Source: Centroscyllium fabricii
Lineage: Eukaryota
Length of the DNA stretch: 64,000 nucleotides
Assembly: GCA_051313645.2 (NCBI GenBank)
Contig: JBNRSN020000003.1
Coordinates: 506,230,001-506,294,000 of the forward strand
Direction: 5' to 3'
The number at the start of each line of letters is the position of its first letter. Position 1 is the first letter of the stretch. The notes beneath the pieces are model-generated. The model was not told where the DNA came from. It worked only from the letters and a program-made list of their open reading frames with translations, and did not search any database. This document shows positions 14,975 through 63,417 of the stretch, one piece after another. Position numbers and translations under genes: made by a program.

Positions 14975-16690
14975 CATAAGAACATAAGAAATAGGAGCAG
15001 GAGTCGGCCAATCGGCCCCTCGAGCCTGCTCCGCCATTCAATAAGATCATGGCTGATCTGATCCTAACCTCAATTTTATTTTTACTCTCCACCCCGCCCA
15101 GACCAATGTGATCACCTGGGAGAGGTGAAAAACCAGACATGGCCGATCTGAACCTAGCCTCACGTCCACTTACCAGCCCGTTCACCATAACCCCTAATTC
15201 CCTTTAATTCCAGGAAACTGTCTATCTCAGTTTTAAATTTATTCAACGTAGTAGCTTCTACAGCTCTCTGGGGCAGCAAATTCCACAGCCGCACCACCCT
15301 CCGAGTAAAGAAGTTCCCCCTCATCTCAGTTTTGAAATGGGAGCCCCTTATTTTAAGATTATGCCCCCTAGTCCTAGTCTCACCCACCGTTGGGAACATC
15401 CTCACCGCATCCACCCGATCAAGCCCTCTCACAATCTTATATATTTCAATAAGATCGCCTCTCATTCTTCTGAACTCCAATGAGTAGAGGCCCAATCCAC
15501 TCAGCCTCTCGTCATATGTTAGCCCCCTCATCCCCGGAATTAACCTAGTGAATCTTCTCTGCACTGCCTCGAGAGCAAGTATGTCCTTTCTTAAATAGGG
15601 ACACCAGAACTGCACGCAGTATTCCAGGTGTGGTCTCACCAATACCCTGTACAACTGCAACAAGACCTCCCTGCTTTTATACTCAATCCCCTTAGCAATA
15701 AAAGCCAACATTCCGTTGGCCTTCCTTACCACCTGCTGCACCTGCATATTAACTTTCTGTGTCCCCTGCACCAGGACCCCCAGATCCCTTTGCACTGAAG
15801 TACTTTCCAGTTCCTTTCCATTTAGATAATAACTCGCTCTATTATTTTTCCTGCCAAAGTGCATAACTTCACATTTTCCAGTATTATACTCCATCTGCCA
15901 AATCTCTGCCCACTCACTTAGCCTATCTATGTCCTTTTGCAGGTTTTTAATGTCCTCCTCATTTTTCACCCTCCCTCCCATTTTTGTGTCATCCGCAAAC
16001 TTTGATATGTTGCACTTGGTCCCTTCTTCCAAATCGTTAATATAGATTGTAAAGAGTTGGGGTCCCAGCACTGACCCTTGCGGAACACCACTAGTGACTG
16101 ACTGCCAGTCTGAGAACGAACCATTTATCCCAACTCTCTGTTTTCTGTTAGAAAGCCAATCCTCCACCCATGCCAAAATATTACCCCCAACCCCAAGATT
16201 TTTTATCTTGAGTAATAATCTTCTGTGGGGCACCTTGTCAAATGCCTTTTGGAAGTCCAAATACACCACATCCACTGGTTCCCCTTTATCCACCCTATAT
16301 GTTATGTCCTCAAAGAACTCTAGCAAATTTGTCAAACATGACTTCCCCTTTGTAAAACCATGCTGACTTTGTCCTATTAAATGGTGTTTATCCAAATGCC
16401 CTGTTACTGTTTCCTTAATAATAGATTCTAACATTTTGCCAACCACAGATGTTAGGCTAACTGGTCTATAATTTCCAGCCTTCTGTCTATTACCCTTTTT
16501 AAATAAGGGCGTTACGTTAGCAGTTTTCCAATCTGCCGGAACCTTTGCCGAGTCCAGTGAGTTTTGAAAAATTATTACCAACGCATCCACAATCCCTACC
16601 GCCACTTCCTTCAAGACCCTAGGATGTAAGCCATCAGGTCCAGGGGATTTATCCTCAAGTCCCATAATTTTCCCAAGTACCACCTCCTTA
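14975..16690 (-). mobile_element. CR1 LINE, 5'-truncated, young
   Basis: Uninterrupted RT ORF, 3' UTR stem-loop, (TTCTTATG)n tail. Confidence 0.93.
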
Positions 16691-16710
16691 GTTTGTTGTG
16701 CAAGTTGCAC
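15160..16710 (-). CDS. CR1 ORF2 reverse transcriptase (truncated; ORF start lies in the flank)
   Basis: KSPGPDG, NYRPVSLTS, YLDFQKAFDKV, GVPQGSVLGP, FADD. Confidence 0.9.
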   Translation of the reverse strand: MQLAQQTKEVVLGKIMGLEDKSPGPDGLHPRVLKEVAVGIVDALVIIFQNSLDSAKVPADWKTANVTPLFKKGNRQKAGNYRPVSLTSVVGKMLESIIKETVTGHLDKHHLIGQSQHGFTKGKSCLTNLLEFFEDITYRVDKGEPVDVVYLDFQKAFDKVPHRRLLLKIKNLGVGGNILAWVEDWLSNRKQRVGINGSFSDWQSVTSGVPQGSVLGPQLFTIYINDLEEGTKCNISKFADDTKMGGRVKNEEDIKNLQKDIDRLSEWAEIWQMEYNTGKCEVMHFGRKNNRASYYLNGKELESTSVQRDLGVLVQGTQKVNMQVQQVVRKANGMLAFIAKGIEYKSREVLLQLYRVLVRPHLEYCVQFWCPYLRKDILALEAVQRRFTRLIPGMRGLTYDERLSGLGLYSLEFRRMRGDLIEIYKIVRGLDRVDAVRMFPTVGETRTRGHNLKIRGSHFKTEMRGNFFTRRVVRLWNLLPQRAVEATTLNKFKTEIDSFLELKGIRGYGERAGKWT

Positions 16711-16894
16711 ATGCCTTCTACCTCAAGTCGCTAACACAGGCCTACAGACCAACAGTTTGGTTGCTCTTTATGGAAGCTGAAAAGAGATCAAATAGCTGTC
16801 ATCTGAGAGTCACGTAAAATACATTGCAAAATTCAGTAGAGATACATCCATATTTGCTCTGCATCATCCATAATCAAGTGCTTACTTCAGAGGT

Positions 16895-34437: not shown

Positions 34438-36146
34438 TGTAAGGTCGCAATATTCCCTGTTAAATTAGATCCACAAAGACAAGAAACGAAGGATGGAGTA
34501 TACACATTTTATTTTATTTGGACAATGGCAGACAAGACAGGCTGCGGCCTGATCAGAGAAAAGGGGCCTCCAAGATGGCCGCCGGACCACATGGCACAGT
34601 ACAAACCGAAACCAAAAACCCAACTCGAAAAGCCCGCGAAGAAACCAGACATAAAGGCGCTGTTAAACCTGGAAATAAATAGCCTGCCTTTTAGAGGCCG
34701 ATTAGCCCGACAAAGAAATGCACCCAGTTTAAATAATCACCCAAAACAACTGCAGAAACGAAGCAGCTGGTCCGTTCAGCCAGCTACAGAAATTGTATAC
34801 CCTTCCAGCAGAAAGCGATTAGCACCCTTGAAAACAAAGGGGCTCTAACCTGAGAAGTTAGAGCCACCATCAAACTATTACCGGCAGACTTGGCTAGACA
34901 AAAGGAGTGCAGTAACCGCTTTCCACACACAATACAGGCTCTAATGGGAAAGACATTAGGCAGTTCGACTGTGGGGTATAACTGGTAGCACATTTCTAGA
35001 ATTCTCTCTCTTCATCTCGGACTCCCTGGAGGAGGGGGGTTTGACTCTCTTGTAACAGACTCTCTTGTAAAATCGCTTCTCATCGGTGAGCTCTTGGAGA
35101 AGGCTCTTGGATTTCTCTCTTTCGACTCGTGGAGGCGACCTCTTGAAGCGGTGAGGTCTAGCAGTGACTTTGGGTGGGCTGTCTTTCTCGAAGACTCCAG
35201 TTCAGCTTTCTGGGTGCAGGGCAAGCAAGGTGAAGGCTCTGGCAGGACAGCAGAGTTGGGTCAGGGCAGTATCGCATCGGAAAACCATTGCCGGTGAGGT
35301 AGTTTAGTTGCTGAGGCCCATTAGCGAAGCAAATATTCAAAGTGAGTGAGTTAGAAAAGGCTGGTTGCAGTTGCATTCGAAGAGTGGGAGAACAATTAAG
35401 CTAGCAGCCCGTTACAGTTCGGCTTGAGAGGGCAGGATCAGCATACCCCAGGGTCCGGTTCAGCCAGGGAGACGGTGCGGTTGGTGTGAGAAGGTAGAGC
35501 AGCCTCGAGGAACCCGTCCGGGACCAGCCCGAGCAGGAGCGACCGCCGCCCAAAGGGAGAAAACAACAAGTGGACTCCCGAATCTTCCACAGCCACGTGA
35601 CGACCGACGCTGCAGCCGAGGAGACGAGGGACTTCGTAGCAGAACCCGAGTATTACCGAGTGGTGAGCATGTGCATTGATCCTACACACCTGGACATAGC
35701 TAGGCAATAGAGGGAAGGGTGGTTCGTTTGGGGTGTAATTTTAGAGTCATTGCCCCGATTTACGATGTGTCGTGCGTTCCCCATCCTATGAGTTGTTTGT
35801 GTATGTGCATATGTATATATATCTATTTGGGAACAATTGTTGGTGTTCCATACTGTGTTGACCCGAGAAAACACCATCTAACTGCTGTAAATATATCTCT
35901 TGGTGTAATAAAAACCTTCCTACTTTACAAACTTTTATTCGAGTCAATAGTCTGAGTCCAATCGGCGTCCATCTCGTCTCTCTCTCTTCTCCTGCACCTA
36001 AGTCCAGCGTCTAGAACCGTAAAGAGTGAGCGATTCGAACCGCTCGCGGGGGAGGAGGTTATTGCGCGAGGCCTAGCGGACTGCTAGCGCAAGGCAATAA
36101 CCTACCCCAAGTCGTACAATAAAACATACGGCGCACGCTCCTTACA
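34438..36146 (+). repeat. 5' LTR (1709 bp)
   Basis: Direct repeat of 40580-42288; three differences seen by eye; AATAAA at 35907-35912. Confidence 0.95.
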
Positions 36147-36148
36147 GA

Positions 36149-38071
36149 ATGGCGACCGCGGCACGACGCTGGCAGCAGGAGAGAGATCTATTGGACTCAG
36201 CTTTGAATAAAAGAAGCGTAATGGAGGAAAGGATTGCTGACTATGTATTTAGTAAAGTAAATTTAACAAAGCAGTGGATTGGGGACCTGTTGGCAGACAA
36301 ACGCCCACTGGATGCAGCTATCCGTTGGACGGGTAGCAAGGGGCATAAAAAGGCCGTAGAGAAAGCCGTATGGCTTATGTGTTATAAAAGACAGGTCCAG
36401 CTTTCGGACCAGGTGATTGCGGAGCAGACCGCGCAGATAAAAGGGTTGGTCTTAGAAGTGGAGGAAAAGGTCTCAGGGGGGCAGCGGTTAATCACCGCGC
36501 TAGAGGCTCTAAATAATGAGCGCCAGGTGAAGACCAACCGCCATGAAGCGAGGGTTGAGCTCCTAGAGAGACAAGTCGTAGAGGCCATGTCAAGTGAAGG
36601 GAAGCTCAGGGAAAGGTGCGTCCGCCTAAGTGGCCAATTGAAGGCACAGGAGGAGGATTTACTGGGGATGAGGGCAGCTTACAAAATGTCCCTCGAGGCC
36701 AAATATGAGGACGCCGATCATAGCGCCTGTTTAAAGGAGATTCAGGACCTCAGGGAGGCCCTGAACAAGTCAAATGGTCTGGTGTGCCTCATCGACCCAT
36801 CGGTGGGTGAGGTAAAGGTAGCTCAGGAACCCCCGAAGCCAAAGTTAAGGAGGAGGGCGCCGGAGGCACCAGCCCCCGCGCTCCCCGCGCGATCACCCCA
36901 CTATACGCAAGCATGGGAGAAAGGGGACAGAGAGGAGGTGGCGGCAAAGGTTCCCAAAGTGGGGAATCCAGACCCGGCACCCATGTGTCCGGTTCGAGAG
37001 ACGAGGCGGGGTCCCGACACTGCGGCTGGGGATCCCGGGCCCATCCTGAATGAGGTTATAGTGCCCCATAGCTCGCAACAAATAAGGAGCATGATAGGGC
37101 ATTTCAAGAAGCTGTCCGCAGCAGGCGATCCGTCCCTGCATTTTAGGGAGGTCGAACAGGCCGCAGCAATTAACGGCTGTGACGAAGGGGAGCAAGCCAG
37201 GATGTTGCTTTTCTCGTTGGATAGCTCTATTCTTCAGTGTCTCTCCGACGAGAGCAAAAGGGGGGAGAATTGTTATAACGACCTGCGGGACGAGGTCCTA
37301 GAAATATTAGGGATGGACGATGAAGGTCCGTTTGTAAGGCTGGGTAGGACCGTGCAGATGGAGGGAGAACCCCCACGGGTTTTCGCCGGGAGGCTGTGGC
37401 CTGTGTATCAGCGCAGCTGCCCAGATGTACCTGCACGGGCTGTTTTGCGCGATGCCGGGAGAGCCCAGTGGCTCCGGTGTATCGTTGCCAACAGCCTACC
37501 CGCCGTTAGAGAGCAGGCGAAGGTGTGGTTTGACCCCACCGATGCTCTAACCACAGAGGAGACGGTCCTCAACCGACTCACGGTTGGGTATAAAAATACC
37601 AGAAGTTCGGTGATGCACTGCGATAAGGGGAAGGTGTATGCGACTAACGCAAACGCCCCAGCGCAGAGAGAGTGGTATCAGGAGGGGGGCAACCCGGGGC
37701 AGTCTACATGTCATAGATGCGGGAAGGCAGGCCACTGGCGCAGAGACTGTAGAGCCCCATGGAGGGAGGTCAAGGAAAGAGCTCCCGCAGCCCCAGCCCG
37801 AGCACCCACTCCCACAGGAGGTGCCGGCGCGACTCTAAGTCCCGAGACAATTGAGTCGATGCTGGAAGCCATGAAGTTTTATATGACTTCCCAGGGAAAA
37901 GTAGCCCCAACCCGAGCACCCGCTCCCACAGGAGGTGCCGGGGCGACTTTAAGTCCCGAAGCCATTGAGTCCACGCTGGGGGCCATGAAGTTGTATATGG
38001 CTTCCCAGGGGAAGGCAGCGGTGGCCACCGGTTCCGCAGGCACCGCAGCCCCTCACGTGGAAACCCAATGA
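36149..38071 (+). CDS. gag: Gag polyprotein (coiled-coil N-terminus, capsid-like core, one CCHC knuckle)
   Basis: Intact 640-aa ORF after the LTR; CHRCGKAGHWRRDC; 38-aa C-terminal duplication. Confidence 0.85.
   Translation: MATAARRWQQERDLLDSALNKRSVMEERIADYVFSKVNLTKQWIGDLLADKRPLDAAIRWTGSKGHKKAVEKAVWLMCYKRQVQLSDQVIAEQTAQIKGLVLEVEEKVSGGQRLITALEALNNERQVKTNRHEARVELLERQVVEAMSSEGKLRERCVRLSGQLKAQEEDLLGMRAAYKMSLEAKYEDADHSACLKEIQDLREALNKSNGLVCLIDPSVGEVKVAQEPPKPKLRRRAPEAPAPALPARSPHYTQAWEKGDREEVAAKVPKVGNPDPAPMCPVRETRRGPDTAAGDPGPILNEVIVPHSSQQIRSMIGHFKKLSAAGDPSLHFREVEQAAAINGCDEGEQARMLLFSLDSSILQCLSDESKRGENCYNDLRDEVLEILGMDDEGPFVRLGRTVQMEGEPPRVFAGRLWPVYQRSCPDVPARAVLRDAGRAQWLRCIVANSLPAVREQAKVWFDPTDALTTEETVLNRLTVGYKNTRSSVMHCDKGKVYATNANAPAQREWYQEGGNPGQSTCHRCGKAGHWRRDCRAPWREVKERAPAAPARAPTPTGGAGATLSPETIESMLEAMKFYMTSQGKVAPTRAPAPTGGAGATLSPEAIESTLGAMKLYMASQGKAAVATGSAGTAAPHVETQ
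36150..36167 (+). promoter_or_regulatory. Primer-binding site, tRNA-Arg(TCG)-type
   Basis: TGGCGACCGCGGCACGAC lies 3 nt after the LTR. It is 17/18 complementary to the recalled vertebrate tRNA-Arg(TCG) 3' end (GTCCTGCCGCGGTCGCCA). Confidence 0.8.
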
Positions 38072-39742
38072 CTAAGACCCGCGCTGCCCATTTACCTGTG
38101 TCCGCTCCGTTACGATGCATGGAGGAGACCTCTGGTGGAAATGGAGGTGGAGAGACAGGAGGGGAATTATCTGTTGGATACGGGGGCCTCATGCACCGTG
38201 ATCCACACAGAGAAGCCGTTTAATTCCCCAATGTCCACCGGAGTCCCTTTTGCATTAGCCGGGTTTACGGGCAAGGAACAGTGGGGCGCGCGCTCAGCGG
38301 CAGTAGGGGAAGAAGGGGAGATCTTCATCCACAAGGTGAAGGCTCACTCTTCCACGGAACCACGTGGGGGAGGCAATCAGCGGGCGGATGCGCTGGCCAA
38401 GGAGGGTGCTCGTGAAGGCACTTTCTGGGACCCCTACGGGTCCGGACCTGTGGCAGCGATCCGGGACAAGGAGGGGAACCACCCCAGGGTTCCCTTGCCT
38501 TTGGATCTCAAAACGGTCCAAAACCAGGATCCCGTTTTAAAAGCTGTCCTCAAAGCTATTAGTGAGGACAAGCAGGTAGAGGGCCCATATAATAGGGCGA
38601 CCCTCTCCGTTAAGGAGGGTATGTTGTTCAGGGAGGAACAGTGGGTTGTGCCGCAGCAGCACAGGAGGGAATTTCTCCAATTGGCCCACGAGGGTCCAGG
38701 AGCAGGGCACCCCGGGCCAGAGGTTACGTGGCAACGGGTGGATATAAACCAGTGTAAGAGGTATAAGTCGGGCACGCAGGGGTCGACCACAGGGGCAAGC
38801 CCTGTGAGTGGGAACGCCCAGCCAAGTGCAGGACCACAGGTCGCGCAGGCAGGTAAAGTAGCCTGCGTGAAAGGAGAGGCCCCGATGGAGGAGAGGAGGG
38901 TCTCTCGTGCTGTGTGGGATTCGGATGGGGAGGAGCCGGACCAACACGACCAAGTGTTGGATCCGATGGACCAACACGACCAAGTGTTGGATCCGAGTGG
39001 CCAACCCGACCAAGGGTTGGACCTGATTGACCTATGCGACCCAGTGCTAGAGTCAATCACAGGGGAGGAGGAGGGGTCGGAGGACGGGGGTTCCGTTCTC
39101 GACTCGAATGCCGACGAGGTAGGGATAGCGGGCGGAGACTCACCACCTGAGGAGAAAGGTGAGGTGAGGTCAGAAGCCGCAAGAGATCCCAGTCCCGGGG
39201 AAGCGAAGCTGAAGGAGGGAGGGTCGGTGCTGGCAGCTGTGAAGGAGTCACAGGCTGCAGCACGATCCGGCCCGGCCTTCAGTTCGTCGACGAGGCGAGA
39301 GGAGGGAGCGTCGATGCTGACAGATGTGACGGGGTCACAGGCTGTAGCACGACCTGGCCCGGTCCTCAGGTCGTCGACCCAGGGGGCTCTCGGTCCCAGG
39401 GAGGCGAAGCTGGAGGGAGAGAGGTTGGTGCTGGCAGATGTGACGGGGTCACAGGCTGCAGCACAACCTGGCTCGGTCCTCAGTTCGTCGGCCCAGGGGG
39501 CAGTACCTAAAGGCACCCTCCGTCGATCAGATAGGATACCCCAGCCCAGGAAAGCTTGGCCAGAACCATCATATGCCCTCAGGAACAGGAAAAGCCCCCG
39601 CAAAAGGATAATTATCCACCCCCGACAAGCAGCACCAGGCTGCGGAGAATCAAAAGCAGCGACAGGCTGCGGGGAACCAAAGGGAAGGGTCAGCAAGGCA
39701 CCGCCACGGGGAGCGGCCCACTACGACCCTGACAGGGGATAG
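38072..39742 (+). CDS. pol: Deleted Pol: protease, RNase H C-terminus, integrase N-terminus, low-complexity tail; in frame with gag
   Basis: RPLV..YLLDTGAS; HKVKAH..GNQRADALAKEGA; WVVP..LAHEGPGAGHPG; no YxDD and no DDE core. Confidence 0.8.
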   Translation, partial: LRPALPIYLCPLRYDAWRRPLVEMEVERQEGNYLLDTGASCTVIHTEKPFNSPMSTGVPFALAGFTGKEQWGARSAAVGEEGEIFIHKVKAHSSTEPRGGGNQRADALAKEGAREGTFWDPYGSGPVAAIRDKEGNHPRVPLPLDLKTVQNQDPVLKAVLKAISEDKQVEGPYNRATLSVKEGMLFREEQWVVPQQHRREFLQLAHEGPGAGHPGPEVTWQRVDINQCKRYKSGTQGSTTGASPVSGNAQPSAGPQVAQAGKVACVKGEAPMEERRVSRAVWDSDGEEPDQHDQVLDPMDQHDQVLDPSGQPDQGLDLIDLCDPVLESITGEEEGSEDGGSVLDSNADEVGIAGGDSPPEEKGEVRSEAARDPSPGEAKLKEGGSVLAAVKESQAAARSGPAFSSSTRREEGASMLTDVTGSQAVARPGPVLRSSTQGALGPREAKLEGERLVLADVTGSQAAAQPGSVLSSSAQGAVPKGTLRRSDRIPQPRKAWPEPSYALRNRKSPRKRIIIHPRQAAPGCGESKAATGCGEPKGRVSKAPPRGAAHYDPDRG

Positions 39743-40579: not shown

Positions 40580-42288
40580 TGTAAGGTCGCAATATTCCCT
40601 GTTAAATTAGATCCACAAAGACAAGAAACGAAGGATGGAGTATACACATTTTATTTTATTTGGACAATGGCAGACAAGACAGGCTGCGGCCTGATCAGAG
40701 AAAAGGGGCCTCCAAGATGGCCGCCGGACCACATGGCACAGTACAAACCGAAACCAAAAACCCAACTCGAAAAGCCCGCGAAGAAACCAGACATAAAGGC
40801 GCTGTTAAACCTGGAAATAAATAGCCTGCCTTTTAGAGGCCGATTAGCCCGACAAAGAAATGCACCCAGTTTAAATAATCACCCAAAACAACTGCAGAAA
40901 CGAAGCAGCTGGTCCGTTCAGCCAGCTACAGAAATTGTATACCCTTCCAGCAGAAAGCGATTAGCACCCTTGAAAACAAAGGGGCTCTAACCTGAGAAGT
41001 TAGAGCCACCATCAAACTATTACCGGCAGACTTGGCTAGACAAAAGGAGTGCAGTAACCGCTTTCCACACACAATACAGGCTCTAATGGGAAAGACATTA
41101 GGCAGTTCGACTGTGGGGTATAACTGGTAGCACATTTCTAGAATTCTCTCTCTTCATCTCGGACTCCCTGGAGGAGGGGGGTTTGACTCTCTTGTAACAG
41201 ACTCTCTTGTAAAATCGCTTCTCATCGGTGAGCTCTTGGAGAAGGCTCTTGGATTTCTCTCTTTCGACTCGTGGAGGCGACCTCTTGAAGCGGTGAGGTC
41301 TAGCAGTGACTTTGGGTGGGCTGTCTTTCTCGAAGACTCCAGTTCAGCTTTCTGGGTGCAGGGCAAGCAAGGTGAAGGCTCTGGCAGGACAGCAGAGTTG
41401 GGTCAGGGCAGTATCGCATCGGAAAACCATTGCCGGTGAGGTAGTTTAGTTGCTGAGGCCCATTAGCGAAGCAAATATTCAAAGTGAGTGAGTTAGAAAA
41501 GGCTGGTTGCAGTTGCATTCGAAGAGTGGGAGAACAATTAGGCTAGCAGCCCGTTACAGTTCGGCTTGAGAGGGCAGGATCGGCATACCCCAGGGTCCGG
41601 TTCAGCCAGGGAGACGGTGCGGTTGGTGTGAGAAGGTAGAGCAGCCTCGAGGAACCCGTCCGGGACCAGCCCGAGCAGGAGCGACCGCCGCCCAAAGGGA
41701 GAAAACAACAAGTGGACTCCCGAATCTTCCACAGCCACGTGACGACCGACGCTGCAGCCGAGGAGACGAGGGACTTCGTAGCAGAACCCGAGTATTACCG
41801 AGTGGTGAGCATGTGCATTGATCCTACACACCTGGACATAGCTAGGCAATAGAGGGAAGGGTGGTTCGTTTGGGGTGTAATTTTAGAGTCATTGCCCCGA
41901 TTTACGATGTGTCGTGCGTTCCCCATCCTATGAGTTGTTTGTGTATGTGCATATGTATATATATCTATTTGGGAACAATTGTTGGTGTTCCATACTGTGT
42001 TGACCCGAGAAAACACCATCTAACTGCTGTAAATATATCTCTTGGTGTAATAAAAACCTTCCTACTTTACAAACTTTTATTCGAGTCAATAGTCTGAGTC
42101 CAATCGGCGTCCATCTCGTCTCTCTCTCTTCTCCTGCACCTAAGTCCAGCGTCTAGAACCGTAAAGAGTGAGCGATTCGAACCGCTCGCGGGGGAGGAGG
42201 TTATTGCGCGAGGCCTAGCGGACTGCTAGCGCAAGGCAATAACCTACCCCAAGTCGTAAAATAAAACATACGGCGCACGCTCCTTACA
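40580..42288 (+). repeat. 3' LTR (1709 bp)
   Basis: Direct repeat of 34438-36146. Confidence 0.95.
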
Positions 42289-45010: not shown

Positions 45011-45529
45011 GGTTTCAATGGCAGCAAGGAAAGATGGGGGCCATACCAAAGGAAACAGCCAAGATGAGAGAGTAAAGGTTTTGCTGGGGAGGAGGGAAAC
45101 AATGATGGAAGCGAGGAAGTGGTTGAGCAGATTGACGGCTGCAGAAGTATGGTGGCAACAGTTTGTTTAGGACACTGACCAATCAGCATTCACTATTCAC
45201 AGGCCAATGCTGTTCTATTGCCACCCACTAGGAGGTATGCTAGAGCTGCCAAAGGTGCAATTCCTCCTACAGTTTTCTCTCCCTTTGAACAGAGCAAAAG
45301 CCAATCTCCACACGTTCGGACAGCAGACTGGGAACTCAGCATATGGAAATTTGAGAGATTCAATCTGCATCTTATCACCCTACAGCTCAGCTCACTGAAG
45401 CTTCAGTGCATTGCCTGCATCTCAATAAGCTTTCTCGTAAGGGAGGCTCACCATATTTACCATAATGTGGAGGAGCCGGTGTTGGACTGGGGTGGACAAA
45501 TGCAAGAAGTCACACAACACCAGATTATA

Positions 45530-47857
45530 GCATTCTTACAATGCAGCCAAGATAATTTTCTGAAACAATATGTGGGGTCACCTACAAGGGGGGGGGCGGT
45601 ACTAGACCTAATACTTGGGAACGAGGACGGGCAGATAGAGGAGGTAACAGTGGGGGAGCACTTCGGGGATAGCGACCACAATTCAGTTAGTTTCAAGATT
45701 GTAATGGAGAAAGATAAAAATGGACCAGGGGTAAAAATACTTAACTGGGGGAAGGCGGATTTCAATAAAATTAGGAACGATGTAACCGCAGTAGATTGGG
45801 GCCATCTCCTCAGAGGAAGATCTGCATCAGAGCAGTGGGAGGCCTTCAGAGGGGAAGTCGGGAAGATACAGGAGGAACATGTTCCTGCAAAAATTAAGGG
45901 TGGGGGAGACAAACAAAGGGAACCTTGGATGTCTAGGGATATATGTAAATTAATGAAGAAAAAAAGGGGGGCTTTTAACGAATATAAACGGCTAAAAACT
46001 GAGGAGGCACTAGGGGAGTATAAGAAATACAGGGGGGATTTAAAGAAGGAGATAAGAAAAGCCAAGAGAGGTCATGAGATTACAATGGCCGGTAAAATCA
46101 AGGATAACCCTAAGGCATTTTATAGTTATATAAAAAACAAAAGGATCACGAGGGAAAGGGTGGGGCCCATAAAAGACGATAGCGGAAAGCTGTGCGTCGA
46201 GCCTGAGGAGGTGGGGGAGGTACTAAATGAATTCTTCTCTTCAGTATTCACAAGAGAGAGGGACGATACCGACATTGAAATCGGACAGAATGTAGGGGGG
46301 GTAATTAAGGATATTACTATTACAAGGGAAGAAGTTCTAGAAATCTTGGGAGGCTTAAAGGTGGACAAATCACCAGGGCCGGACGCAATGTTCCCCAGGC
46401 TGCTGTTCGAGGCCAGGGAGGAGCTTGCGGGCCCCCTGTCTCAAATCTTCAGGACCTCTCTCGCGTCAGGGGATGTGCCTGAGGACTGGAGAACGGCTAA
46501 TGTAGTACCCCTGTTTAAAAAGGGTAGTAGGGACAAACCGGGCAACTACAGGCCAATCAGTCTTACATCTGTAGTGGGGAAAGTAATGGAAAAAATTCTG
46601 AGGGATAAAATCAGTTCGCATTTGGACAACCAAGGTCTAATAAGAGACAGTCAGCATGGCTTCGTCAAAGGTAAGTCGTGCCTGACCAATCTGTTGGAAT
46701 TCTTCGAGGAAGTAACAAAGAGGGTGGATGAAGGGAGTACTGTGGACGTAGTATATATGGACTTTAGCAAAGCTTTTGATAAAGTCCCACATAGGAGACT
46801 AATAACAAAGGTTAGAGCGCACGGGATACAGGGTAACTTGGCACAGTGGATCGAAAACTGGCTGGGGGATAGGAGACAAAGGGTAATGGTAGAGGGCTGC
46901 TTCTGTGACTGGAAACCAGTAACCAGTGGCGTCCCCCAAGGATCGGTTTTGGGACCCTTACTGTTTCTAGTATACATCAACGATTTGGATATGGGAGTAG
47001 GGGGTACGATCAGCAAATTCGCTGATGATACGAAAATCGGAAGGGTGGTAAACAACGATGAGGATAGTAAGGGGCTTCAGGAGGATATAGACATAATGGT
47101 AAATTGGGCAGAAAAATGGCAAATGGAGTTCAACCCAGAGAAATGCGAGGTCATTCAATTCGGTAGACCAAATGGGGTAAGGGAATATACCATGAACAAC
47201 AAAACGTTAAATAGGACCGAGGAGCAGAGGGACCTGGGGGTACAGGTGCACAGCTCCCTGAAGGTTGCTGGACACGTTAACAAGGTGGTTAAGAAGGCAT
47301 ACGGAATCCTCGCCTTTATTAACCAGGGCATAGTATACAAAAGTAGGGAGGTAATGTTAAACCTGTATAACACACTGGTGAGACCTCAGCTGGAGTACTG
47401 TGTGCAGTTCTGGTCACCGCACTACAGGAAGGATGTGGCTGCCCTGGAGAGGGTGCAGAGAAGGTTTACCAGGATGATACCTGGTCTGGCGGACCTATGC
47501 TACGAGGAAAGGCTGGACAGGCTGGGGTTGTTTGCCTTGGAGAAAAGAAGGTGGAGGGGTGACATGATTGAGGTGTACAAGATCATGAGGGGACACGATA
47601 GGGTAGACAAAGGGGCATTGTTTCCCCTGGTGGGAGAGTCAAGCACCAGGGGACATAGATTCAAGATCAGGGGGGGGAGGTTTAGGGGGGAGGTAAGGAG
47701 AAATTTCTTTACCCAGAGGGTGGTGGAAGACTGGAACTCCCTGCTTGTGAGGGTGGTGGAGGCAGGAACCATCACAACATTTAAAAAATACTTGGACCAG
47801 CACATGAAGGACCATAACATACAGGGTTATGGGCCAGGTGCGGGCAACTGGGGTTAG
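45530..47857 (+). CDS. CR1 ORF2 (APE endonuclease C-terminus + RT), no internal stops
   Basis: PTRGGAVLDLIL, GDSDHN, KSPGPD, NYRPISLTS, GVPQGSVLGP, FADD. The first ~104 aa of the predicted 879-aa ORF come from flanking DNA. Confidence 0.9.
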   Translation, partial: AFLQCSQDNFLKQYVGSPTRGGAVLDLILGNEDGQIEEVTVGEHFGDSDHNSVSFKIVMEKDKNGPGVKILNWGKADFNKIRNDVTAVDWGHLLRGRSASEQWEAFRGEVGKIQEEHVPAKIKGGGDKQREPWMSRDICKLMKKKRGAFNEYKRLKTEEALGEYKKYRGDLKKEIRKAKRGHEITMAGKIKDNPKAFYSYIKNKRITRERVGPIKDDSGKLCVEPEEVGEVLNEFFSSVFTRERDDTDIEIGQNVGGVIKDITITREEVLEILGGLKVDKSPGPDAMFPRLLFEAREELAGPLSQIFRTSLASGDVPEDWRTANVVPLFKKGSRDKPGNYRPISLTSVVGKVMEKILRDKISSHLDNQGLIRDSQHGFVKGKSCLTNLLEFFEEVTKRVDEGSTVDVVYMDFSKAFDKVPHRRLITKVRAHGIQGNLAQWIENWLGDRRQRVMVEGCFCDWKPVTSGVPQGSVLGPLLFLVYINDLDMGVGGTISKFADDTKIGRVVNNDEDSKGLQEDIDIMVNWAEKWQMEFNPEKCEVIQFGRPNGVREYTMNNKTLNRTEEQRDLGVQVHSSLKVAGHVNKVVKKAYGILAFINQGIVYKSREVMLNLYNTLVRPQLEYCVQFWSPHYRKDVAALERVQRRFTRMIPGLADLCYEERLDRLGLFALEKRRWRGDMIEVYKIMRGHDRVDKGALFPLVGESSTRGHRFKIRGGRFRGEVRRNFFTQRVVEDWNSLLVRVVEAGTITTFKKYLDQHMKDHNIQGYGPGAGNWG

Positions 47858-48478: not shown

Positions 48479-51400
48479 TGTGGAGGCATGCAAGGCTGAA
48501 GGACCACGCTGGACACAGGGGGTTCGGAAGGAGCACTTTTATTACAGTAAGCTGTTACAACTATGGCCAGGTGGAGAAGAGAGAGAGCCACCTGGCGCTC
48601 AGGTATTTAAAGGTCCCGCGGTTGGGGACATCACTGCCGGCCGGCCACCTGGTGACGTCATCACGTCGGGGATGCCCGTGCGTCCTCCGACGGGCGGGGC
48701 CGTTTTGCAGCTTTCCCAGAGCGGGTTCGTAGCTGCCGGTGGGCGTGTCGCCACACAGCTCCCCCCCAGAATCCGCGAGGGGAAGTGTAGTTGCCTAGAG
48801 GAGAGGGAGACAAAAAGGAGAGCAAACACATATTTCGATAACACACAGAATGTCCGACAGTTTGCCGCAATGGCCTGGTTTTGTGGCCGGCAGGTGTTGT
48901 GTGCTGTTCCGTGGTTCGAAGGATGGTGTTGTGGCGGGCCGCCAGTGTTCTGCCAGTTTTGCCTCAGGCGAGGCGCTTAGGTGGCCTGATGGTGCGGCCG
49001 GCACGTGTGATGTGTTGCTTGTTGGTCTGTGTGGGAGTGTGGGCGGGTTTTGGTGCGGTAGGGCGGCCGCGTTTAGGTGGTTGTGCGGGGACTGTTGTCT
49101 CGCCCGCCATTACGTGTGCTGGTTTGAGCCGGTCAATGGATACGGTCTCAGTTCTGTTGCCCATTTGAATGTCAAAAGTTTTGGGTCCCGCCCGAAGCAC
49201 TCTGAATGGCCCGTCGTACGGTGCCTGCAGCGGTGTTTTGTGTGAGTCATGGCGGACAAACACATATTTGGCGTCTTGAATGGCCTCGGGGACCCGTGTC
49301 GCCGGTTGTCCGTGGCGGGCCACCGGAAGTGGTTTGAATTCTGCTGCCTGGTTGTTGAATTCCCTGAGGCAGCGCTCGGCTGACCAGGGTTCGTTTGTTT
49401 CCGCCACGAACTCGCCTGGTACCGTTAGTGGTTGGCCGTAAACGAGCTCGGCTGCCGAGGCGTGTAGGTCTTCTTTGGCCGCCGAGTGGAGGCCGAGCAT
49501 TACCCAGGGCAGGCGGTCCGTCCAGGTTGCATCCTGGAGGCTGGCCCGCAGGGATGTTTTGAAAGTTCGGTGGAACCGTTCGCAGAGGCCATTGGCTTGC
49601 GGGTGGTAGGCAGTGGTTCGGTGCAGGGTTACCCCGAGGTCGTGAGCGATGGTTGACCATAGAGTTGAAGTGAATTGGGGGCCCCGTCTGAAGTAATGTC
49701 GTTGGGGACGCCGAAGCGGGCGACCCAGGTGGCGATGAAGGCCCTGGCCAGTTCGGCGGTGGTGGTCGTGTTGAGGGGAACCGCTTCGGGCCAGCGGGTG
49801 GTGCGGTCGACCATTGTGAGGAGGTAGGAGTGACCACGTGATGGGGGTAGTGGTCCGACCAGGTCGATGTGCACGTGGCTGAAACGTCTGGCTGGGATGA
49901 CGATTGGTTGGAGCGGTGCTTTGATGTGGTTGTGCACCTTGGCTCGCTGGCAGGCATTGCACGAGGTGGTCCAGGCGCGGACATCTTTATTTAGGCCGCG
50001 CCAAACGAATCGCGCAGAGATGAGCTTGGTGGATGCGCGGGCGCCGGGGTGGGAGAGGCCGTGGAGGGTCTGGAATATGTGTTGCCTCCACGCGTGGGGG
50101 ACCACGGGCCTGGGTTGGGGCAGGGTGACGTCGCAGCGGACCCCCGTGGCTGTGGGTCCGTGTGCTACGGTGGCTAAGAGTAGGCCGGGAAGTTTGTTGG
50201 TGGGGTCGAGGAGGTCGGGGTCGGTGAGTTGGTCGGCCGCCATTTTGACGTAGTCGACCGCGGTCTGGACCGCGTTGGTGGTTGGGTATGCGCAGCAGTG
50301 TGCACAGGCGTGGTCGGTGGCTGGAGTTGGGGGGTTGTCGGCTCTGTCGGTTTGGGTGCCGGTGGTGCCTGCGCTGCTGGTGGCGGGGCACAAGGAGTGG
50401 TTGTTGGGGCGGTCGGGGTTGGGTTTGTCAATGGCGGGTCGTGAGAGGCAGTCAGCGACCACGTTGTCGCGGCCGGCAATGTGCTGGATGTCGGTCGTGA
50501 ACTCTGACACGGTCGCGAGCTGGCGCTGCTGCCTGGCCGACCAGGGTTCGGAGCGCTTAGCCATTGCGGAGACCAGCGGTTTGTGATCTACAAATGCCGT
50601 AAAGTGGCGGCCCTCCAAGAGGAAGCGAAAGTGGCGCACCGCGAGGTAGAGAGCGAGTAGCTCCCTATCGAAGGCGCTGTACTTGACCTCTGGGGGCCGG
50701 AGGTGCCGGCTGAAAAAGGCCAGTGGTTGCCATGAGTCGCCCGACCACTGCTCGAAGACTGCTCCGACAGCGTGGTCGGAGGCGTCGGTGGTGAGGGCTA
50801 CTCTGGCGTTGGGCCTGGGGTGGCTGAGTAGGGTGGCTTTGGCGAGGGCGGTGTCGGCTTCGGCTGTCCACTCGACCGCGGTCTTGTTGGACTGCCCATG
50901 GGTGGCCCGATAAAGGGGGGCCATGAGGGCGGCTGCGCCGGGAATAAAACGGTTGTAAAAATTAACCATCCCGAGGAATTCCTGCAGCCCCTTGATGGAG
51001 TGCGGGCGGGGGAATTCCTGGACGGCCTGCACCTTGGAGGGCAGGGGTATGGCCCCGGTGTGGGAGATGTGGTGGCCGAGGAAGTCGATAGCCTCGAGGC
51101 CGAATCGACACTTGGAGGGGCTTAATATGAGGCCGTGTTCGGCCAGGCGTTTAAAAAGGGTTCTAAGGTGGATGAGGTGTTCCCGGGGGGAGGCGCTGGC
51201 CACCAGGATGTCGTCAAGGTAGACGAATGTGAACTGCAGGTCCCGGAGGACTGAGTCCATGAGGCGCTGGAAGGCCTGGGCCGCGTTTTTGAGTCCGAAG
51301 GGCATCCGGAGGAATTCGAATAGGCCGAATGGGGTGATGACGGCTGTCTTAGGGACATCCGCCGGGTGCACTGGGACTTGGTGGTAGCCCCGCACAAGGT

Positions 51401-53280
51401 CGATTTTTGAAAAGACCGTGCAGCCGGCTAGCCTCACGGAAAAATCTTGGATGTGGGGGACTGGGTACCTATCCGGGGTGGTGGCGTTGTTGAGGCGGTG
51501 GTAGTCTCCGCAGGGGCACCAGCCGCCGTCGGGTTTGGGGGCAATGTGGAGGGGGGAGGCCCAGGGGCTGCTGGAGCGGCGGATGATGCCGAGCTGTTCC
51601 ATGATGTGGAACTCGGCGCGCGCGATCTCTAGCTTGGCTGGGTCCAGCCTGCGTGCGTGGGCATGGACTGCGGGGCCTGTGGTGGTGATGTGATGCTCTA
51701 CGCCGTGCTTGGCGGAGCGGGCTGTGAAGGTTGGGTTGGTTAGGATCGGGAACTCGGCGAGCAGCGTGGCGTACGTGTCGGAGTTGCGGGCCCGGCAGTG
51801 GGCTGCCGTGTGGGTCTGGTGTGCTGGGGCTGTGGAGCAAGGGATGGTTGACATGATTTGGATGTCGACCAGGCGGCGCCGGGTAACATCGACCAGGAGC
51901 CCGTGGGCGCACAGAAAATCGGCTCCGAGTAGGGGCATGTTAACCTGCGCGGTAATGAAGTCCCACGTATACCTGTGGCCTGCTAGTTTAATGGTAAGCT
52001 GGCGGGTACCGAACATGAGTATCTCGGAGCCGTTTGCGGCTTCGAGTGGTGGGCCTCGGGTGCCCTGCTTGGATTCTGCGGGGGAGGCTGGCACGATGCT
52101 GTGCTGCGCGCCTGTGTCGCAGAGGAAGCGGAGGCCTGAGACGCTGTCTGTAACGAAGAGCAGCGCTCCGGAGCGGCCGACGCACATGGTGGAGCTGGGG
52201 CTGGTTTCGGGTTTGAAGTTGCAGGGCGGAACGCAGTGCTGCGCTTTGGCTTCAAACCTGGTGTGGTAGTAGCACCAGCCGGGTCCCGCGGTGCGTGGCT
52301 TTTTGTGGGTCCGCGTGGCTCTGAGTTGGGGCCGGGGTTGTGGGTAGTGCTGCTCTTGTTGAGCGGCAGCGTTACGGTGCATGGTGGCGCGGGTGCGCTC
52401 GGCCTTAATAAGCTTGTCTGCCTCCTGAGCTAGCTGCCTGTTTGAGAGGTGCTCCAAGACCGTCAGTGTCGGTCTGATGGAGGGCGGCAGCTTAAGGAGG
52501 TAGAGGGCGCGCTTAAGGGTGGCCGGGTCGCGATTGAGCGCCTCAAACTGGGTCCACAAGTCGGTGGGGTCTGCGTCTCCGAGGTCGGGGAGGTTAATGA
52601 CCTGGCAATCGCGCTCGAAAATGGTTGGGGTAAATTTTTCAAGCAGCGCGGCCTTTAGCGATTCGTACCTGCCAGCAGAAGTGTCTTCCTCGATGGTGTC
52701 CCACATTCTGTCGATGGTGGACTGTGCGAGGGCTGCGAAGAGCAGGCTGTAGCGGTCGTCTCCCTGCACGCCATGGATGCGGAAGGTGTTCTCCGCGTTG
52801 CGAAACCAAGCCGCTGGATGGAGCTCCCAGAACTGTGGTATGGCTGGAACCGGGAGGTAAACTTGGCCCCGTCTGCCTTGGCGTGCTGAGTCATTTACTG
52901 CTGGCATGGTGGTAGCGATTCCACTGAGGCAGCTTGGCCCTCAGTCCTGCAGCGGCTGCTTCATTGTTCACCTGAGAATCGTCCCAAGTATCGGGGTCAC
53001 CACTGTGGAGGCATGCAAGGCTGAAGGACTACGCTGGACACAGGGGGTTCGGAAGGAGCACTTTTATTACAGTAAGCTGTTACAACTATGGCCAGGTGGA
53101 GAAGAGAGAGAGCCACCTGGCGCTCAGGTATTTAAAGGTCCCGCGGTTGGGGACGTCACTGCCGGCCGGCCACCTGGTGACGTCATCACGTCGGGGATGC
53201 CCGTGCGTCCTCCGACGGGCGGGGCCGTTTTGCAGCTTTCCCAGAGCGGGTTCGTAGCTGCCGGTGGGCGTGTCGCCACA
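48479..53280 (-). mobile_element. Ty3/Gypsy LTR retrotransposon, CsRn1 clade, young
   Basis: 277-bp LTRs at 53004-53280 and 48479-48755 (two differences seen); TSD ATTT; PBS TGGTGACCCCGA (tRNA-Trp); PPT GGGGGGAG; CHCC Gag motif. Confidence 0.93.
48964..52907 (-). CDS. Single-frame Gag-Pol with one frameshift in the integrase (~49688)
   Basis: CYYHTRFEAKAQHCVPPC, LCDTGAQ, YLDD, TTDASD, HGLSHPG..C..C, HIDLVGP, TSD/RGPQF, YHPQANGLCER, APYDGPF. Confidence 0.9.
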
Positions 53281-61615: not shown

Positions 61616-63417
61616 TGTAAAGGTCGCAATTTACCACGATTCAAAAACGACAGGAGACAGCCAGTTTAATTAGACACTTTATTGGACAAAATGGCTGCAA
61701 CACAGAAAAGGGCTGCGGCTTGTTGAAAGAGAGAGAAAGAGGGGCCCCTAAGATGGCCACCAGACTCCGTGACAAACCGACCAGAACTTTCGAGACATCT
61801 TCTGAATAACTTAACTGCCGTCCAGACAAACATTATGTATGAGCCCTGCGAAAGCCCGCGAAAACTAGCTAGCACCCAGACATGGAGGCGCCGAGGAATA
61901 ACACTTGTTGGAAGATCCAACAAGCCCTCCCCGAAACCGATTGACTGGGCCCGTTTAGCCAGACAATAAAGAACACCTTTTAACAGGTTTAAATATGACA
62001 CTGCCAGATACCGATTGACTGACCCAGATAGTCAGACTTAAGATTGAACAGCAAAACCATCGGTACGCCATTTACATAATTTCCCGACAAAGGAAAACAT
62101 TTCACAGATAGTTAAGGCCGTTCTCGGGCCATCCCGGAACAGGTTAACCAGACAACAGAGGCATCCGAGCCATTTATTCTCACAAAAGATTTCACGATTT
62201 GGGCGGGAGATAAGCCCACAGTTTCATACTATAACAATAAGACATGTTGTACTTTTGGATATCTTCAGAGAGAGACCTTTTACTGAGAGATACTGGTGCG
62301 ACACTTCTGCTAGTTATCCAGCTCTTGCTGGCTGAAGGCACGGTACTGTTCTGTACGGAAGAGCAGGTACTGGAGAGTGCGGGATGGTAGAGTTGGGCCC
62401 GAGCGGCGACTGCTGCAGAGTAAAGTTAGTTGCCTGCTAGCGGAGAGTCGGGTGCTAAGTCGGCGAAAGACGGTACCGGCTGCTGAGGACTGTTGAGCAT
62501 CGGGCAGAGTTGAGGCATAGTGCGGGAGGTACTGTAAGTGCTGAAGGAACTAATCGAGGCACTGGAGGTATTGGAGGTCCTCAAAGATTGGGCACGGAAC
62601 CCATAGTTCGGCAGTCAAGTCGAGTTTAGAACGGGCAGCACAGCCCGGGAGAGACAGTCGGACAAACGATAAGAAAGGCAGTCAGTCACAGATCGGCTCG
62701 AGAGTGCAGGACCGGCTCACCACAGGGCCCGGTTCAGCCAGGAAGACAGTGCGGTTCAGCGCACGGTACGGCAGGCAGTGGAACGTTGAAGAGAGGTAGA
62801 GAGATCTTGAGAGACCCGCCCAGGGCCAGCCCGAGCAGAGCCAGCCGCCGCCGAGAGGGAGACGTAAACAAGTGAGCTCCCAAATCTTCCACAGCCACGT
62901 GACAACCAGCACTGCAGCGGAAAAGCACGAACCTCGTAGCAGACCCCGAGTTTAACCGAGTGGTGAGCATGTTCTCCGATCCTACACACCTGGACATAGT
63001 TTAGGCAATAGAGGGGAGGGTGGGTTTTATAGGGTAACCAATAGAGTGTTGACCCCTTTTTCGATGTGTCGTGTGTTCCCCATTTTGTAAGAATAATAGT
63101 GTGTGTTAGATATATTTATATACATATATTTATATTTGATACTGCCGTTTGAGTATAGGACGTGTATGTCCTATGGTGATGATGTGTTTTGATATGCTGT
63201 CTGCTATAATAAAGATCCATTTGAACTTTTACCAAAGCCGAGTTTGAACGAGTCCAGTCTCTGCATTACTCTTTCCTGCATCTAAGTCCAGCGTATAGAA
63301 TCGTAAGGGCGAGTGGGTCGAACCACTCACGGGTGATCATTGCGCGAGGCCTGGCCGGTGGCTAGAGCAAGGCAATAGGACCATAGGTCGCGTAAAGCAC
63401 GGCGCAAACCCCTTACA
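61616..63417 (+). mobile_element. Solo LTR (1802 bp), divergent relative of the 34438 element
   Basis: TGTAAAGGTCGCAAT..CCTTACA; 4-bp TSD CTGT; colinear conserved blocks with 34438-36146. Confidence 0.9.

Follow-up and report, generated by a model that had tools for sequence, protein, structure and literature searches.

The window (the whole stretch of 64,000 nucleotides that was analysed) contains a young endogenous retrovirus, and the RNA fold reported here occupies the last 128 nt of its 5′ LTR, that is, a part of U5. The element and a related solo LTR were annotated as follows.

34438 to 36146, plus strand: 5′ LTR of a retrovirus-like element of family A (1709 bp; TG..CA ends; target-site duplication GAGC)
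35814 to 35821, plus strand: TATA-like box, from a motif scan
35907 to 35912, plus strand: AATAAA
36149 to 38071, plus strand: gag ORF (640 aa, with a CCHC knuckle), ending in UGA-CUA, with pol in the same frame
38072 to 39742, plus strand: pol remnant (protease, end of RNase H, integrase Zn finger)
40580 to 42288, plus strand: 3′ LTR, in which the cloverleaf sequence recurs at about 42161-42288
61616 to 63417, plus strand: solo LTR of family B (target-site duplication CTGT), with the cloverleaf at 63303-63416

The element is 7.85 kb long, with 3 differences between its 5′ and 3′ LTRs, and it has the hallmarks of a retrovirus, namely TG..CA LTRs, the GAGC duplication, a primer-binding site (PBS) and a purine tract. 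Judging by sequence motifs, transcription would start near 35845 and the R/U5 border would lie near 35930. The RT/tether region and the integrase core are deleted from the pol remnant, and the window copy is therefore non-autonomous. Longer relatives encode protease, RT, tether, RNase H and integrase (PR-RT-tether-RNase H-IN, with dual RNase H), and the best PDB matches of the RT of a longer copy were MLV-type and foamy RT. The UGA-CUA at the end of gag (38069-38074) is common to most A and B copies, and family C has UGA-CAA; we take UGA-CUA at a gag/pol border to be a readthrough context.

Compared by eye, the motifs of RT and RNase H match those of SnRV, as does the layout of RT, tether and RNase H, as far as the excerpted SnRV literature extends; ERVs resembling Snakehead retrovirus form the clade Huo (excerpt of PMC6001957). 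In contrast, the RT motifs differ by eye from those of the lokiretroviruses Loki-Pma and Loki-Aro (PMC7947760, in excerpt). No env ORF was found in the window copy or in 4 longer family A copies. Family C (L388, 6372-8894) has an 841-aa third ORF with RQKR (an RxKR site), 24 Cys, 11 N-glycosylation motifs and a hydrophobic stretch at the C-terminus; it had no Pfam or PDB match, and a weak Atlas lead (0.76) pointed to F-type fusion glycoproteins, a trait reported for lokiretroviruses.

Relatives were sampled from family A (the window element), family B (the solo LTR), intermediates, family C and an old lineage D, and a junction pattern found 10,992 LTR-PBS junctions of the clade in the 7.2-Gb genome (0 in controls). 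Gag of family C is about 60% identical, and the RT of lineage D (L220) about 50% identical. A Gag search found one relative, from a skate, which makes a cartilaginous fish the probable host; no branch was well supported in a tree of the family C copies; a scan of viral contigs found nothing, and a metagenome scan found 70 distant loci. Contigs of three other organisms hold close family A copies, which gave no useful covariation or start-site data. A U3 segment (35404-35784, compared with 62678-63083) is about 75% identical between A and B, above the R region, and is possibly a promoter or antisense element. The window also holds a Gypsy-type element on the minus strand (48479-53280; 277-bp LTRs 99% identical; 1103-aa ORF) and LINE-type RT ORFs at 45179-47857 and 15160-16722.

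The cloverleaf at the end of the 5′ LTR consists of four helices.

36019-36026 with 36138-36145, plus strand: P1, weak in families A and B and strong in C
36028-36032 with 36041-36045, plus strand: P2 hairpin, with an unpaired 8-nt loop (36033-36040) that contains the Arg codon CGA (36036-36038)
36048 to 36108, plus strand: P3 arm, with a basal G/C helix, a core (36061-36098) and a variable cap
36111 to 36132, plus strand: P4 hairpin (36111-36116 with 36127-36132), with a conserved 4-bp base and a variable tip

An earlier note on this DNA had described these helices, directly before the gag AUG, as a selected and uncatalogued cis-acting RNA fold. All four were found where it placed them, and the AUG (36149-36151) lies just past the LTR end at 36146. 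Within P3, the core pairs 36061-36065 with 36094-36098 and the cap pairs 36073-36077 with 36083-36087, and the GAG/AA internal loop is near-invariant. The folding z-score of the window copy was -3.84 (0 of 200 shuffles were as stable) and that of the solo LTR was -1.93 (10 of 200). Covariation was evaluated with 25 natural copies of families A, AB, B, C and C′, among which 97.1% of cells pair. The covariation score was 0.202, compared with 0.135 ± 0.007 for shuffled alignments (0 of 500 reached it) and at most 0.071 for slid controls, for a structure that was itself derived from the same sequences. Two-sided changes occurred in 7 of 41 pairs, a count not above that of the shuffles (100 of 500). 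Three families with Gag proteins about 60% identical retain the fold.

When folded in context, the pairing probability was about 1 for P2 and P3 and 0.7-0.8 for P4. P1 reached 0.98 in family C but about 0 in both the window copy and a copy of family B, and in these predictions no other helix is as weak; the terminal repeat of the LTR, which is under constraint for other reasons, supplies the 3′ strand of P1. A K-turn at the base of P3 was considered and set aside: by eye it suits family A, whereas B and C do not accommodate it. In another organism, a contig aligns with window 35991-36045 up to and including P2 and then runs into a different short hairpin; it perhaps represents a more distant family.

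Rfam gave no match over 36019-36146 at E ≤ 10, and none in 5 other copies at E ≤ 5. The fold model (R1), run on 21 lineage D loci, 56 of the 70 metagenome loci and the window, matched only the three window copies; therefore, the fold is known from this clade alone. The covariation and the absence of an Rfam match support the claim of the earlier note, and we conclude that the cloverleaf is likely a real, selected cis-acting RNA, larger than first noted. Beyond that note are a link between the P2 loop and the primer anticodon, the location of the AUG within the PBS and a long U5-gag stem, which involve the following features.

35938 to 36011, plus strand: 5′ arm of the predicted long U5-gag stem, with inner helix P0 at 36004-36011
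36149 to 36151, plus strand: gag AUG, the U and G of which are the first two PBS bases
36150 to 36167, plus strand: PBS, 17/18 complementary to a genome-encoded tRNA-Arg(UCG)
36165 to 36221, plus strand: 3′ arm of the predicted long U5-gag stem, equivalent to gag codons 6-24

The PBS types of the other groups match tRNA-Arg genes of the same genome at 18 of 18 positions: Arg-UCG for family B (L293) and family C (L300), Arg-CCG for C′ (L299) and Arg-ACG for lineage D (PBS from L220, gene L294). Thus, the UCG primer serves A, B and C (two genes), the CCG primer C′ and the ACG primer lineage D. The idea of a mid-PBS mismatch was ruled out, since the PBS types fit different tRNA-Arg genes. Several tRNA-Arg(UCG) genes (L287, L293) have an insertion of about 17 nt after the anticodon, probably an intron, and in loci L305-L315 (G000:C731) tRNA genes (Arg-ACG, Met, Ala) recur about every 1.29 kb in a long tandem array.

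Of 100 junctions listed, 99 kept the A of the AUG, though the spacers vary from 2 to 4 nt, and in 111 of 123 junctions the reading frame to a conserved Gag motif was uninterrupted and in register. Therefore, the AUG at 36149, within the PBS, is probably used as the gag start; no AUG occurs anywhere in 35812-36148. The leader of lineage D is of the ordinary kind, at about 100 nt, and the PBS-to-gag leader is missing in this clade. The families also conserve a second in-frame AUG (36221-36223, codon 25), which sits at the foot of the long stem and near the apparent Gag start of lineage D; it could serve shunting or the synthesis of two Gag forms.

The predicted U5-gag stem, of about 45 bp, encloses the cloverleaf, the PBS and the AUG, and in all of the 30 copies folded its energy lay between -44 and -61 kcal/mol. 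Exchange of arms between families A and C weakened the stem to -29 and -36, whereas close relatives swapped freely. Between A and C, 32 of 60 positions of the 3′ arm differ; both families pair 19 of them, and at 17 of the 19 the partner base is not the same. Relative to control windows, the stem z-scores were -5.6 (AB), -4.1 (B) and -5.0 (C), as against -2.8 for the window copy, a value equalled by 1 of 129 control windows.

The codon displayed in the P2 loop was compared with the primer type over 135 distinct junctions, a non-random sample. It was found that with a UCG-type PBS the loop was CGA in 94 of 101 cases (CGG in 3, unread in 4), and with a CCG-type PBS it was CGG in 20 of 32. Genome-wide, a CCG-type PBS is present in 102 of the 10,992 junctions; among 100 listed, 88 belong to subfamily C′, the loop of which was CGG in 19 of 19 examined. 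Outside C′, 11 of 12 listed copies with a CCG PBS were without CGG, and such copies look like sporadic mis-priming. One copy, L378, has a CCG PBS outside C′, a CGG loop and the AUG, and looks like an intermediate or a recombinant. Conversely, 262 LTRs have a CGG loop, the first 100 of which include 85 of family C type; in those fetched, every family C 5′ LTR with a readable PBS was of the CCG type (two rearranged places were unreadable), and three single A/B copies had a CGG loop yet a UCG PBS.

Comparison of C′ (20 copies) with C (8 copies) gave 40 diagnostic columns out of 2469: 10 indels, 3 in the PBS and 27 other substitutions (1.1%). The loop base is the sole fixed change inside the cloverleaf and the only C′/C substitution outside the PBS from -297 to +11 of the LTR-terminal hexamer; opposite it would lie position 34 of the anticodon, the point of difference between the two primers. 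The P2 loop is predicted to be unpaired in context, and all 5 of 5 loops paired best with the anticodon loop of their own primer. The C′ loop gave -6.7 with CCG and -3.8 with UCG, and the C loop -4.3 compared to -2.3, energies that ignore loop geometry and tRNA modifications (for example, methylated G37). The covariation of loop and primer is one evolutionary event, noticed post hoc. Hitchhiking is possible because the loop change is linked to 26 other substitutions; a rough estimate from the column comparison puts this chance at about 0.5-1%. In lineage D, the ACG-type PBS has a different hairpin beside it, the loop of which shows CGU in 2 of 3 copies; this hairpin is non-homologous (no R1 match) and was chosen by eye.

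The loop has another potential partner in the primer, the T-arm (positions 52-58), which would be freed on annealing to the PBS. The loop plus one stem base can form 7 bp with the T-arm of both primers at -10.0 kcal/mol (-9.5 in C′), on paper a stronger pairing than that with the anticodon (-10.0 versus -4.4), at a site contiguous with the PBS-bound tRNA segment. This pairing would account for the variable first two loop bases, the other loop bases being fixed, and it has a precedent in avian sarcoma virus, in which a U5 segment is complementary to the T-loop and U5-TΨC pairing is described (excerpt of PMC3185550). However, it requires that P2 be partly opened, and because the T-loop is the same in both tRNAs it predicts no A-to-G change with the primer switch, leaving the C′ change as a tolerated G-U hitchhiker. 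We regard the T-arm as an unlikely principal partner, though it is the main and a serious rival; it and the anticodon could also both pair with the loop in turn. The further suggestion of the earlier note that the loop mimics a tRNA T-loop fared poorly: it has 8 nt rather than 7, and family B has G at the position equivalent to U54.

Subfamily C′ also bears on the function of the fold. It has no pol, and in 6 of 19 copies a frameshift disrupts gag early on; nonetheless the fold is retained, which points to a cis role in copying or packaging. The C′ copies L386, L389, L392 and L393 keep gag and the third ORF region, with the AUG now UUG, and an in-frame AUG lies four codons on, within the CCG-type PBS. 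Loss of the first AUG as compensation for the new one is possible but weak as a reading, because C′ is non-autonomous.

Could the cloverleaf instead be mainly a packaging or dimerisation signal relocated to U5, in which P2 would act as a palindromic kissing loop and the purine-rich loop of P3 as a nucleocapsid site? The missing PBS-gag leader and the retention of the fold in pol-less copies would suit such a signal, and packaging of MPMV needs long-range U5-gag pairing (PMC4878616, in excerpt). The self-pairing energy of the P2 loop is -5.1 in A and -5.3 in C, but it weakens to -3.7 in B and -4.3 in C′, two groups that have been amplified, and dimerisation leaves the codon change unexplained. 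The conserved 6-nt loop palindrome of a kissing loop was not found, the palindrome being 4 nt in B and including a wobble in C′. The palindrome part of the dimerisation and packaging proposal in the earlier note is therefore weakened (6 nt to 4 nt in B; a wobble in C′, where self-pairing falls from -5.3 to -4.3 kcal/mol), whereas packaging roles of P3, P4 and the stem belong to the explanation that we favour; a role for P2 as a dimer loop, the one part that competes with that explanation, is quite improbable.

We find it very doubtful that the cloverleaf acts in translation, as an IRES or a shunt directing ribosomes either to the PBS-borne AUG or to the one at codon 25. A stem of -52 kcal/mol precedes the AUG, the codon-25 AUG sits at the stem base, and the kept A, the open frame and the lack of an upstream AUG (as above) would fit a translational role. 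On the other hand, C′ has lost the equivalent of AUG 36149 and often has a broken gag, and still keeps the fold, and the loop codon has no tie to translation. The IRES proposed earlier gained no positive evidence, and no Rfam IRES match was obtained, although the heavy structure ahead of the AUG leaves it a slim chance.

It is highly improbable that P2 mimics the anticodon arm of the primer and so binds arginyl-tRNA synthetase, in the manner of the HIV-1 TLE with LysRS (excerpt of PMC11181671). The A and C loops do resemble the anticodon loop of tRNA-Arg(UCG), but mimicry predicts a UCG-to-CCG change in the loop, and the actual change is elsewhere and makes the loop more UCG-like; furthermore, family B is without a U33 equivalent.

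Taken together, we favour, with reasonable confidence, an interpretation in which U5 forms part of a folded leader domain that docks the primer tRNA-Arg at two points, the PBS and the P2 loop. The identity of the PBS, the correlation of loop codon and primer, the overlap of AUG and PBS and the covariation are observations, and the helices and the stem that closes the domain are predictions. The 3′ end of tRNA-Arg would bind the PBS, and its anticodon loop would bind the P2 loop, which displays the matching codon; this second contact may select or stabilise the primer complex, as proposed for the A-rich loop of HIV-1. The folded, tRNA-bound state would cover the gag AUG and mark the RNA for packaging and reverse transcription, and a ribosome translating gag codons 1-24 would open the domain. 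P3 and P4 probably have packaging or scaffold roles, because there is no leader between the PBS and gag.

This docking model resembles the HIV-1 A-loop, in which, as far as the excerpted literature extends, a U5 loop is complementary to the primer anticodon and loop and PBS change together; likewise, the P2 loop is complementary, predicted to be unpaired and changed with the primer (in one event). HIV-1 stably uses foreign primers once the PBS and A-loop are changed together, although this point is disputed (excerpt of PMC3185550), and its contact with the primer anticodon protects the viral RNA (excerpt of PMC7793103). Unlike in HIV-1, the loop belongs to a four-way junction and precedes the PBS by about 110 nt, tRNA-Arg serves as primer, and the co-change was not engineered but occurred naturally in the genome of a host; the two are not similar in sequence. 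Extended primer contacts outside the PBS are likewise described for Ty1, which pairs with tRNA-iMet over a 10-nt PBS, compared with the full 18 nt here (PMC3592414, in excerpt). The closing of a leader domain by pairing of U5 with the gag start has counterparts in MPMV LRI-I/II (excerpt of PMC4878616), HIV-1 U5:AUG and FIV, but in this clade the AUG is in the enclosed loop, inside the PBS, and the PBS-gag leader is absent. The avian sarcoma virus fold is much smaller, and here, unlike there, the loop covaries with the anticodon. In that virus, U5-leader and U5-IR stems flank the PBS, one of them using the terminal repeat, and the arrangement here is similar. To our knowledge, the U5-gag interactions of other retroviruses are much shorter than the approximately 45 bp predicted here.

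In the bacterial T-box, a codon in a loop reads the tRNA anticodon while the 3′ end of the tRNA pairs elsewhere, and by analogy a codon in a structured RNA loop would read an anticodon here too. The differences are the lack of an Rfam match, an 18-nt instead of a 4-nt 3′ pairing and the lack of a terminator. We raise only tentatively, as a doubtful extension, that this is a T-box-like tRNA receptor in a vertebrate retrovirus: a four-way junction of 130 nt would read the anticodon by its loop codon, invariant P3 and P4 motifs would hold the remainder of the tRNA, and once the cognate tRNA-Arg covered the start codon, the RNA would be diverted from the synthesis of Gag into packaging and reverse transcription.

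Searches of the open-access literature found no description of the fold or of a natural loop/primer co-change. We conclude that the domain probably works like known retroviral PBS domains, and that what is new is its unusual architecture and the natural co-switch of loop and primer. In HIV-1, it is a long-standing dispute whether contacts with the primer anticodon beyond the PBS are under selection (excerpt of PMC3185550), and this clade offers a natural primer switch with a predicted compensating base, in a short RNA. The layout in which the AUG lies in the PBS, together with the very long U5-gag stem, could couple primer binding to the shut-off of translation.
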